Below, in pieces: positions 35,895-38,912 of a stretch of 64,000 nt of DNA. How positions within the stretch are numbered: the first letter of the stretch is position 1; each line of letters starts with the position of its first letter. The DNA is from Candidatus Bathyarchaeota archaeon (lineage in GTDB: Archaea > Thermoproteota > Bathyarchaeia > Hecatellales > Hecatellaceae), in NCBI GenBank assembly GCA_052246995.1, contig JBQPWD010000003.1, positions 128,001-192,000 of the forward strand, read 5' to 3'. The notes below the pieces were generated by a model that made no database searches, was not told the origin of the DNA, and saw only the letters and a list, made by a program, of their open reading frames with translations. A program made the translations under genes and the position numbers.

Positions 35895-36665
35895 TTAAAG
35901 GTTTATGTTAAGGTTAAAAACTTCTACGGCATTTTTAACAGTTTTTTCCCCAACTTCAAAAAAACTCGCTTTCTTTATTTCAGCGATTTTTTCGATAACA
36001 ATTTTAACATTTTGAGGAACATTTCTTCTGTTATCCGGAGCAAGAAAGGGTGAATCAGTTTCGGTTAAAATTTTTTCTAGAGGTATATCCTTAACGGCTT
36101 TTTTAATATCTTTGCTTTTGATGATGTTTGGTGCTACTGAGATGTAGTATCCTTTTTTGGCTATTTCGTATGCAAGTTTACGTTTACCTGTAAAGCAGTG
36201 AAAAACTGCTTTTTCAACTTTGTTATCTAAAACAATCTTAAAACCATCTTCTAACGCATTTCTAAAATGAAGAATAACTGGTAAGTCTAAATCTTCAGCT
36301 AAACCTAAAAATTTTTTAAAAACATTTTTTGTTCTTATAACCTCATTTTGGCTTTTAATCCAATGGTAATCTAATCCCACCTCACCTATACCCACAATTT
36401 TTTCCTTATTTTTTCTGATAAAGTGGACGTAATCATCTATTTGAGTATCTGACAACTCTGAAACATGTATGGGATGAAGCCCTAAGCTTACATGTATAAA
36501 ATTCGGATATTTAGACTTTAAGTTTAAAGCTTTTTCAGCATCCTTAGGCTCAACTCCACTTATAATAACAGCTTTTAAAGCTTTTTCAGCATCCTTAATA
36601 ACATCATCTCTATCTCTATCATAGTCTTTAAATGTAAGGTGGCAATGAATATCGATCATCTTCAA
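35895..36665 (-). CDS. tatD: TatD family hydrolase
   Basis: DIHCHL, GLHP, GEVGLDY, HCF, ETDSPFL. Confidence 0.93.
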   Translation of the reverse strand: MKMIDIHCHLTFKDYDRDRDDVIKDAEKALKAVIISGVEPKDAEKALNLKSKYPNFIHVSLGLHPIHVSELSDTQIDDYVHFIRKNKEKIVGIGEVGLDYHWIKSQNEVIRTKNVFKKFLGLAEDLDLPVILHFRNALEDGFKIVLDNKVEKAVFHCFTGKRKLAYEIAKKGYYISVAPNIIKSKDIKKAVKDIPLEKILTETDSPFLAPDNRRNVPQNVKIVIEKIAEIKKASFFEVGEKTVKNAVEVFNLNINL

Positions 36666-36731
36666 TCTAAACCCAGTTTGAATGTGTTAAACTTTCTTTT
36701 TTGCTGGAAATGTAAGGTTAGACAAGGTTTC

Positions 36732-36825
36732 AAGGGGTGTCGCCTGGATAACTAACACTTAGTATCATTGTCGGGCTTTACGCCCACCTCCGCTAAGCTC
36801 TCTTGTACCAGGCATTTTACCCCTT
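36732..36825 (-). ncRNA. Putative H/ACA box guide RNA with K-turn
   Basis: Minus strand: lower stem UGCCUGG/CCAGGCG followed by ACA, two-sided pocket, upper stem GCUUAG/CUAAGU, K-turn-like CGGA/AAUGA, apical GGGC-GUAAA-GCCC, outer stem AAGGGGU/ACCCCUU. Confidence 0.7.
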
Positions 36826-36968
36826 TCTTGCTAAACTATTAATCTACAGCACTTCCTATTAAGGAATATTTAAGCCTAAGGAAAAAATTGGTTATTTTTA
36901 AAATAAAAGGTTAATTGATACCCTTACACTTTACTTAATTAATGTTGTAGGCTATGGGGGTATTTTAG

Positions 36969-38084
36969 GTGGATGTAGATTCAAGGTTGAGGCTTGTGGA
37001 AAGAAACTTGGAGGAGATTGTAACTAGGGAGGAGCTACGTATACTTTTAGAGTGTGAATCTAAGCCTAAAGCTTATTGGGGTTTTGAACCTTCTGGATAG
37101 CGGTTAAACCTTAATGGTTTACCGCCCAGAGTAATGCATATAGGTACTGGACTTGTTTGTGGTTATAAGATTTTAGATATGGTTGAAGCTGGGTTTGATT
37201 TTACTATTTTTCTTGCCGATTGGCATGCCTGGATAAATGATAAGTTCAACGGGGATATGGACGCCATTAGAGAATGTGGAAGATACTTTATCAAAGCATT
37301 CTCATCCATAGGTTTGACACCTGGAAAGGTTAAATATGTTTGGGCTTCAGAGCTTCTGGAAAATCCGGAATATTGGGATATGGTTTTAACTGTTGCAAAA
37401 AAGGTTAAGATTTCAAGGGTTCTTAGGGCCCTTCCTATTATGGGTAGAGATTTGAATCAAAAAGATGTTGAAACAGCATGGTTGTTTTATCCTTGCATGC
37501 AGGTTACGGATATTTTTAGACTGGATGTTGATTGTGCATGCGCAGGAATGGATCAGCGTAAGGCTCATATGCTTGCAAGGGATGTTGCAGAAAAGATTAA
37601 AAGAAAAAAACCTATTTGTCTTCACACCCACCTTTTAGCTGGGCTTTCTGGTCCAGCGGAAAAGCATGAAGAAGTGGTTTATGATGAAGATGAAACATTA
37701 AACGTTCAAATTGGAACAAAGATGTCTAAAAGTAAACCTCAAAACTGTATATTTATCCATGACAAACCTGAGGAAATTAGGAGGAAGATTCTAGCTGCTT
37801 ATTGTCCTTCAAGAGAGGTTTTTGGTAATCCTGTTATGGAGATTGCAAAATACATTATTTTTCCTAAGGAAGGAAAGCTAATTGTTGAAAGAGAGGAAAA
37901 GTATGGTGGTAAAATTGAGTTTACAAGTATTAGTGAGCTTGAAAGAGTGTACATGAATGGTAAACTTCATCCATTAGACTTAAAAAATAGCGTTGCTGAA
38001 GCGTTGATAAGGATACTTAACCCCGTAAGAAAGTATTTTGAGGGTAAGGAAGAGTTGATTGAAAAAATTAGAATGTTTCAATAG
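36969..38084 (+). CDS. tyrS: Tyrosyl-tRNA synthetase, two exons (36969-37098, 37132-38084), 360 aa spliced
   Basis: Exon 1 from GTG: MDVDSRLRLVERNLEEIVTREELRILLECESKPKAYWGFEPSG. Exon 2: MHIG, LADWHAWINDK, YPCMQVTD, GMDQRKAH, KMSKS, LHPLDLK. Confidence 0.93.
37099..37131 (+). other. 33-nt bulge-helix-bulge intron in tyrS mRNA
   Basis: UU-CUGG-[AU^A]-GCGG(U)UAAACC-UUAAU-GGUUUA-CCGC-CCAG-[AG^U]-AA. Excision removes the in-frame TAG and gives SG-L-MHIG. Confidence 0.88.
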
Positions 38085-38103: not shown

Positions 38104-38912
38104 CTAAGATTCGTCTAAACTCTTCTTAATCGCTTTTTTCTCAGGTTGAGGAACTGGAGAACTATATTCAACCATATAAGGTGTTGGATATCTTAATCCT
38201 CCATGACACGTATACTCTAAGCCTTCAATAATTTTTGGTAAAGCTTCAATGTGAAAAACTGCCGCAGTCTCATCATCACCAGCAAGTCCTTGATATCTTT
38301 CCCCGTAGCCTGGTAAGATAAGCTGGGCTTTTCTTGTTTTGTAACATTTAGACAATGCTCTACATCCTACAAGGCTTGTAAGTTTAGCTTCAATAAAAGG
38401 TGATTCTTCATCAGTATAAGCAATACCACTAATAAGCCTGTTTATTTGAGCTCCATCCCCATAAACAACAACTAAGTCAGGTTTGATGGTGGTTCTTTCA
38501 ATTGGTGAAATAACAATATTTGTAAAACTTCCAGGTGGAAGAGAATCCTCCTCAACAATGCTTACTAATTTTCTTGCAACCTCTTCAGACTTGAAGAACC
38601 TCCAGCCAACAAGAAATTCTTTTATAAGTATTTCTTTACTCTCGCTCCAAACATCCTTACCGTATTTTGCAAGTCCAAACACAACAACACCTAAACATGG
38701 TATATTTTGTTTGTCAATAACATATGTTCTTCCAGTTCTTCTTGAAAGTAGCATTGCTCTACAAAAAACAAAGCAAGCTGAAGGTTTGTAGGCTTTTTCC
38801 GGTATAGGTTCCCGCTTTTAACAAATTTTATAGCTAGGGGGAAGGTTTTTGGTCTGAGGTAAAAACTTAAACGTGAACCTAACTCCCTAATCTTTTCAAC
38901 TTCGCTTGACAT
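38104..38912 (-). pseudogene. DUF169 family protein, one frameshift
   Basis: PLAIKF N-terminus; adding one G at 38811-38813 gives KSGEPIPEKAYKPSACFVFCRAMLLSRR and joins both ORFs; PDLVVVYG..Q. Confidence 0.72.

Follow-up and report, generated by a model that had tools for sequence, protein, structure and literature searches.

Bulge-helix-bulge (BHB) introns of archaeal pre-tRNAs reportedly follow the hBHBh' geometry set out by Marck and Grosjean in 2003, and the pre-mRNA of cbf5 is said to carry a BHB intron in work attributed to Watanabe (2002) and Yoshinari (2006). In its accessible part, a 2020 study (PMC7714728) names cbf5 as the only archaeal protein-coding gene reported with such an intron, and it describes one further mRNA, that of HVO_1309 in Haloferax volcanii, which is processed by the splicing endonuclease at a BHB in its 5' untranslated leader. 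Here we describe a candidate second case in a 64,000-nucleotide stretch of DNA from a Candidatus Bathyarchaeota archaeon (assembly GCA_052246995.1, contig JBQPWD010000003.1, positions 128,001 to 192,000 of the forward strand; hereafter the window). The sole tyrS of this genome, encoding tyrosyl-tRNA synthetase (TyrRS), appears to carry a 33-nucleotide (nt) archaeal BHB intron between the codons for EPSG and those for MHIG of the HIGH motif, a reading to which we assign a probability of about 90%. Full-length TyrRS is probably made only after splicing of the mRNA, and the element would represent a cbf5-type mechanism in a new essential host gene and a new lineage. A full-text literature search, with subscription journals and supplements outside its scope, returned no BHB intron in tyrS or in any aminoacyl-tRNA synthetase.

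The source genome comprises 1.53 Mb in 17 contigs with a completeness score of 100%, and the window corresponds to G000:C3:128001-192000. On its plus strand, a GTG at 36969 starts a 43-codon frame that ends in ...YWGFEPSG and meets an in-frame TAG at 37098-37100. An ATG at 37134, in the same frame, starts a 316-codon TyrRS open reading frame (ORF) that stops with a TAG at 38082-38084, directly followed by a TAA. A first-pass annotation made from the letters of the window had described this interrupted TyrRS frame, running from the GTG to the TAG and resuming at 37134, and reading the DNA and its ORFs confirmed it. The read-through product is assigned to the Pfam family tRNA-synt_1b. When compared to the NCBIfam model NF006330 (tyrosine--tRNA ligase, 342 positions), exon 1 covers profile positions 1-43 and exon 2 covers positions 45-339 at 396 bits, which leaves exactly one profile position for the junction codon. 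The best solved TyrRS structure, 2cya, aligns from end to end with a single 11-residue gap that lies exactly opposite the tyrS insert.

tyrS is single-copy in the source genome. A second intact tyrS, which the first-pass annotation had named as the finding that would reduce this copy to a pseudogene, was not found in the source genome; the only further match to the TyrRS profile is the tryptophanyl-tRNA synthetase (TrpRS; NF008927, 530.8 bits against a cut-off of 478). One copy in a genome scored 100% complete suggests that the cell needs this gene. The insert is also a feature of the DNA itself, in answer to the earlier concern that raw reads might lack it, as contigs from all four sequencing runs, which stem from hot-spring metagenomes and are all DNA-like, span it without differences. 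Gene callers have split the gene in the manner that the first-pass annotation foresaw: a public protein collection holds the 316-residue piece (37134-38081) and the 43-residue piece (36969-37097) as separate entries. The 90% cluster of the larger piece has 14 members, 11 with 316 residues and the others with 275, 315 and 317, and one 316-residue member, MCX8176125.1, is annotated as tyrosine--tRNA ligase.

According to the accessible part of a 2009 survey by Yokobori et al. (PMC2738675), the splicing endonuclease EndA cuts between the second and third residues of each bulge, and the hBHBh' definition in the accessible part of PMC7714728 asks that the flanking helices h and h' each contain at least two Watson-Crick pairs. 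The tyrS junction, on the plus strand throughout, has this geometry. Its central helix of 4 base pairs (bp) joins CUGG (37093-37096), which lies within the Ser-Gly codons, to the intronic CCAG (37126-37129), and is flanked on opposite strands by the 3-nt bulges AUA (bulge 1, 37097-37099) and AGU (bulge 2, 37130-37132). On the intron side, helix h' forms a hairpin at 37100-37125 of 5+5 bp, in which 37100-37104 pair with 37121-37125 and 37106-37110 pair with 37116-37120, with U37105 bulged and a loop at 37111-37115. On the exon side, helix h joins CCUU (37089-37092) to AAUG (37133-37136), both strands being coding, through U37091-A37134, U37092-A37133, a C/U mismatch and C37089-G37136, so that it has exactly two U-A pairs, the minimum that the definition asks for. 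All of the pairs, bulges and intron-stem positions proposed in the first-pass annotation are present. On 37080-37150, RNAfold returns a fold of -21.8 kcal/mol (z = -2.64; 2 of 200 shuffles are equally stable) that contains the intron hairpin, the central helix and the first of the two bulges. It is the comparative data presented below, rather than this single-sequence fold, that exclude a chance origin of the motif.

By the cleavage rule, the predicted 5' cut falls after U37098 and the predicted 3' cut after G37131. This would remove 37099-37131 (33 nt), a segment that starts with the last base of bulge 1, continues through the hairpin and the 3' central-helix strand, and ends after the second base of bulge 2. 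Exon 1 would then extend over 36969-37098, its 43 codons being followed by U37098 as the first base of the junction codon, and exon 2 over 37132-38084, beginning with the UA that completes this codon and continuing with MHIGTG... to the terminal TAG. The junction codon U+UA is read as Leu and gives EPSG-Leu-MHIG, bearing out the earlier proposal that excision of these 33 nt restores the frame with a Leu at the junction. This single residue fits the one-position gap in the profile match. U37132, the base of bulge 2 that would be kept, is invariant in an alignment of 47 sequences.

We propose that the tyrS pre-mRNA folds with its exonic CUGG paired to the intronic CCAG between two 3-nt bulges, the intron hairpin closing the structure. 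The splicing endonuclease of the source genome would cut between the second and third base of each bulge, and RtcB would ligate the exons and probably circularise the intron. The mature mRNA would read ...EPSG-Leu-MHIG... and encode a TyrRS of ~360 residues, while on the unspliced mRNA translation would halt at the TAG right after Gly43. That the tyrS RNA is cleaved and ligated in the cell is what we infer from the sequence.

The machinery for such a reaction is encoded in the source genome, which has both a splicing endonuclease family and an RtcB ligase (one PF01139 match, 601.6 bits). Two genes belong to the EndA family (PF01974, 102.7 and 83 bits); the regions that contain them are G000:C6:127341-127598 and G000:C7:55216-55470. 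For the 183-residue protein the closest chains are 3p1z_B, 3ajv_B, 2cv8 and 2zyz_B, which we take to be catalytic subunits of crenarchaeal splicing endonucleases, and the second paralogue is more divergent. In the literature, including the accessible part of PMC2738675, hetero-oligomeric EndA is linked to relaxed substrates and to cbf5 splicing. The presence of two paralogues suggests that the enzyme is probably of this hetero-oligomeric, broad-specificity crenarchaeal type. ARAGORN lists 44 tRNA genes, 13 of them with predicted introns, mostly of 13-79 nt; tRNA-Tyr(gta) at G000:C4:81959-82084 has a predicted intron of 49 nt. The coupling of TyrRS level to tRNA maturation raised in the first-pass annotation is speculative. 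It is conceivable that the tyrS intron is kept as a checkpoint, with TyrRS production waiting for free EndA and RtcB, the enzymes that also mature tRNA-Tyr, so that synthetase and tRNA would appear in step, but we consider this unlikely. The link to tRNA-Tyr may be a coincidence when 13 of 44 tRNAs have introns. ARAGORN also reports a 741-nt intron in a tRNA-Val(gac) on a small contig (G000:C9:6293-7133), which is possibly spurious or an ORF-bearing intron.

Of 401 Bathyarchaeia genomes sampled, 380 had a tyrS match. A search of 40 relatives matched tyrS in all 40, and of the 30 loci returned, 12 (the window's own included) were interrupted at exactly this codon and 18 were not. A degenerate pattern for the interrupted form, requiring 22-52 additional bases from the Gly codon to AUGCAY, matched 48 of the 401 genomes, and a reversed control pattern matched none. 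Two more interrupted genomes escape the pattern, G001 because GUG replaces AUG and G009 because its insert is 53 nt long. With these two added, at least 50 of the 401 genomes, in 8 of 37 family codes, have their tyrS interrupted at precisely this position: 7 of 14 genomes in f1, 3 of 3 in f3, 2 of 2 in f7, 4 of 4 in f13, 6 of 6 in f18, 5 of 5 in f21, 21 of 59 in f26 and 2 of 2 in f35. Beyond Bathyarchaeia, the best 80 tyrS loci in a collection of species genomes, with labels that included Bathyarchaeia, Thermoplasmata, Thorarchaeota, Desulfurococcales and Sulfolobales among others, contained 76 that could be judged; the only interrupted one (L033) is itself a Bathyarchaeia record, 92% identical. 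One Bathyarchaeia genome, G094, has two full-length uninterrupted tyrS matches, at G094:C1:267023-268084 and G094:C3:432192-433232, with 56% and 52% identity to the query.

The 47 distinct interrupted junctions have inserts of 21-53 nt. In 33 of them the length is not a multiple of 3, so that read-through would be unable to rescue those genes. The cut rule restores the frame in 47 of 47, and the junction codon that it creates specifies Leu 29 times and Met 18 times, with no third amino acid. A junction codon that starts with U ends in A or G (no Phe), and one that starts with A ends in G without exception (no Ile). At the same position, the uninterrupted homologues (n = 18) have Leu in 10, Pro in 4, Met in 3 and Phe in 1. 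In 46 of the 47 interrupted relatives, exon 2 stays open over 250 codons or more, the remaining one running into a contig edge, and the interrupted relatives have ordinary branch lengths on the TyrRS tree.

An alignment of tyrS across relatives, which the first-pass annotation had suggested as a check, reveals covarying helices. Pairs were counted on a MAFFT alignment of the 47 junctions, where the share of paired cells is 90.3%. Shuffling lowers this share to 79.3%, and none of 500 shuffles attains the real figure; sliding the 3' partner by 1-3 columns drops it to 24-47%. The central helix has all four pairs in 38 of the 47 distinct relatives and three of four in the other 9, and is 95.7% paired among 46 distinct relatives; the five intron-stem pairs adjoining the bulge are 96.1% paired. 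Two-sided changes are seen in 2 of the 4 central-helix pairs and in all 5 of these intron-stem pairs. In the central helix, pair 12/66 alternates between U-A (27) and C-G (19), and pair 11/67 changes once from C-G to G-C. The 5' strand of this helix is made of Ser and Gly codons (UCU, UCC or AGC, plus GG), and the intronic strand tracks it as CCAG, C(C/U)GG or CCGC. RNAalifold, run without a supplied structure, predicts the intron stem and 3 of the 4 central pairs, with 7 of 9 pairs compensatory, in agreement with the shuffle and slide tests on the presence of compensatory change. The earlier claim of an EndA/RtcB-type BHB intron at the HIGH motif is thus strongly supported by comparative and genomic evidence, namely the same-site inserts, their frame-shifting lengths, the covariation, the Leu/Met junction codon, the single gene copy, the encoded enzymes and, as described below, cbf5.

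Several observations weigh against this interpretation. In the window, the exon-side helix h is limited to two U-A pairs. Its pairing in relatives reaches 77.7%, compensatory change is absent, and 30 of 46 have the second pair open. The first-pass annotation was fair in flagging that this helix has only 2 bp; it is weak, and its state in relatives suggests that many of them are relaxed BHBs. In the RNAalifold consensus the central helix sits one column away (10-13 with 65-68) and pair 14/64 is open. Under the cut rule that register gives a stop codon, so the register used here was chosen through reading frame and homology, not energy. Nine of the 47 relatives have one non-pairing central-helix position, which is G/A in 8 members of one f26 subgroup and C/A in 1. 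Two sequencing runs labelled metatranscriptomic (X1 and X2) yield DNA-like contigs of 35-42 kb, in which no joined exons were seen, and are uninformative on splicing. In addition, exon 2 opens with a possible start codon, ATG here and GTG in the sister genome G001, which would allow separate translation of a 316-residue protein.

The eight G/A mismatches of the f26 subgroup lie next to bulge 1 in loci L126, L128, L131, L132 and L139-L142, all of genus code g41. An alternative register is fully paired in this subgroup (UCCG/CGGA, with an outer GUGC/GCAC) and breaks the frame under the standard cut rule. The introns of this subgroup may be relaxed substrates.

The start codon of exon 2 and the separate public entries for the two pieces bring up the possibility that the insert is kept. 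The 43-residue peptide and the 316-residue protein from ATG 37134 would then be made separately and possibly assemble, comparable to the split genes of Nanoarchaeum, or the truncated protein would act alone. However, the exon-2 Met is the conserved residue of MHxG in uninterrupted homologues as well, so it is not a newly evolved start. The conserved YxGFEPSG segment, which holds a tyrosine-binding residue in archaeal TyrRS, sits in exon 1 (profile positions 1-43). Separate products also leave unexplained why a 4-bp helix between 3-nt bulges is maintained by compensatory change, and why the virtual junction codon is restricted to Leu and Met. For these reasons we regard a split or truncated enzyme as very unlikely.

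Less probable again is a translational bypass, in which the ribosome would leave the mRNA at the GGA before the UAG and hairpin and land downstream. In phage T4 gene 60, ribosomes bypass part of the mRNA by means of matching take-off and landing codons; we know of no bypass of this type in archaea. The GGA-UAG-hairpin layout at 37095-37125 resembles a take-off site, and those relatives with a CCGG/C(C/U)GG helix have a GGA 3 nt before AUG AUG, where a hop would give the identical protein. In the window, however, GGA is absent between 37101 and 37134, where AGA comes nearest, and the CCAG-type relatives, which are the majority, also are without a landing GGA and so do not provide matching codons. 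Moreover, features that are conserved or covary here would not be required for a bypass: the bulges of 3 nt, the spacing of 4 bp and the intronic strand of the central helix.

Reading the TAG as a sense codon, for example as pyrrolysine, would turn the 33 nt into a 12-residue insertion in TyrRS. The insert of the window is in frame with a single TAG, and ARAGORN labels one tRNA gene as 'tRNA-Pyl(cta)' (G000:C2:139181-139274, minus strand, 18-nt intron). This label is a mis-parse: with the intron set at 37/38 the gene becomes tRNA-Gln(CUG), an isoacceptor that the tRNA set would lack without it, and by manual reading of the sequence its 7-nt anticodon loop is regained only if the 18-nt intron is cut by the bulge rule. 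PylS was not found in the source genome, where the best match to TIGR02367, at 39 bits, stays below the cut-off of 178. The stop codon of tyrS is itself a TAG, 33 of the 47 related inserts shift the frame and several contain TGA or TAA, and the extra residues would separate EPSG from the HIGH motif, a place at which 2cya has no such residues. On the strength of the frame-shifting relatives, the PylS result and the mis-parsed tRNA, we excluded UAG recoding, to which we attach almost no probability. The same negligible weight is given to a pseudogene or an assembly artefact, since the in-frame stop 44 codons into an essential gene that would favour a pseudogene stands against a sole tyrS in a genome scored complete, an exon 2 that is undamaged in this genome and in 46 of 47 relatives, whose branch lengths are ordinary, and an insert present in the contigs of all four runs and in at least 50 genomes.

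Splicing of a BHB intron, the explanation we favour for tyrS, has an internal positive control in the same genome. Its cbf5 has one TAG inside the TruB_N match, within a 21-nt BHB insert at G000:C2:209580-209600 on the minus strand (L170:1797-1817), outside the window. Removal of this insert joins G|AU and rebuilds the catalytic Asp codon of GGTLDP, and G|AU in this codon is the published site of the crenarchaeal cbf5 intron, as given in the accessible part of PMC2738675. tyrS would then be the second gene of this genome with such an element. Among 30 related Bathyarchaeia cbf5 loci, 23 have an insert of 11-30 nt at the site, 5 are uninterrupted and 2 lie outside the motif; 21 of the 23 inserts have all four central-helix pairs. 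The 2009 survey, in its accessible part, places the cbf5 intron in Desulfurococcales and Sulfolobales only (PMC2738675), so that its presence in Bathyarchaeia would widen the known range. The cbf5 match at G020:C11:292020-294618 comes in three pieces. Besides the break at the Asp codon, ~1.6 kb lies between query residues 195 and 195-345 and may represent a large insertion, either an intein or a long intron.

A genome-wide scan for BHB motifs in interrupted coding sequences of the source genome was made at several stringencies. Loose versions of the motif gave 2,436 and 3,030 candidates. A strict version gave 477 matches, 13 of them bridging ORFs, and missed cbf5, and a filter for compact hairpins kept 52 candidates with both tyrS and cbf5 among them. 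None of 15 other candidates, judged by Pfam on both flanks or by reading, had one family split across the junction, in a scan that was not exhaustive. Examples of those rejected are a HEPN/nucleotidyltransferase gene pair, adjacent speD/speE-like genes and an intact GT2 gene.

Set beside the known systems, the tyrS element is most like the cbf5 intron of Desulfurococcales and Sulfolobales. In the accessible part of PMC2738675, that intron is cut between the second and third bulge residues, lies inside a catalytic motif, has a patchy pattern of gain and loss, and occurs in hosts with hetero-oligomeric EndA; the source genome carries it as well, at the same Asp codon. The tyrS element differs in its host, an aminoacyl-tRNA synthetase, in its lineage, Bathyarchaeia, and in being, here, a prediction from sequence. 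Its motif is regular (3-nt bulges, 4-bp helix), unlike that of most cbf5 introns, which the same part of PMC2738675 calls 'unconventional', whereas the weak outer helix of many tyrS relatives resembles the relaxed BHB described there for most cbf5 introns. Archaeal pre-tRNA introns share the hBHBh' geometry, the predicted enzymes and the size range. In tyrS, however, the exon-side helix is coding sequence, not a tRNA stem, and the product is an mRNA in which the frame must be restored to the base. With the mRNA of HVO_1309, tyrS would have in common that the splicing endonuclease processes an mRNA, but in the accessible account of that case (PMC7714728) the BHB lies in the untranslated leader, whereas the tyrS intron interrupts the coding sequence.

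The second gene described here is an essential aminoacyl-tRNA synthetase, with a putative intron at a fixed site in at least 50 genomes from 8 Bathyarchaeia family codes and with covariation support. If splicing is confirmed, tRNA-machinery splicing of mRNA would be a regular part of gene expression in a widespread uncultivated class, the 33-nt intron would be a tractable substrate for endonuclease recognition of mRNA, and tyrS would offer a clean case for the study of intron gain and loss. Public annotation currently shows this TyrRS as 316 residues with the first 44 residues missing, and such mis-annotation implies that gene callers, marker-gene sets and pseudogene counts for archaea of this kind should allow for BHB introns.

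The history of the insert was traced on a TyrRS tree of 76 rows (46 interrupted and 30 not, one row having been dropped), built from exon 2 only and representing a gene tree, not a species tree. The intron trait requires at least seven changes on this tree, 3 of which are forced by well-supported branches. Interrupted rows were enriched through the pattern search, so the tree speaks to the history of the trait and not to how common it is. It would allow a single ancient gain followed by recurrent loss, or recurrent gain at the same position.

Rfam returned no match at or near the tyrS intron, with the whole window searched at the gathering threshold and 36600-37200 at E values up to 5. Nine ORFs around tyrS were tested and include rpiA, L11, Spt5, TatD, DUF169, oxidoreductases and an Lhr helicase. 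No homing endonuclease was present among these nine neighbours, and the idea of a mobile cassette was rejected on this ground. The DUF169 gene, which adjoins tyrS on the minus strand at 38104-38912, is itself divided into two overlapping ORFs in different frames, one of 73 residues (38691-38912) and one of 216 residues (38104-38754, profile positions 43-209). The change of frame falls near 38740-38790, close to a run of six T and with no obvious hairpin on reading, and could be a frameshift, a sequencing error or a programmed event.

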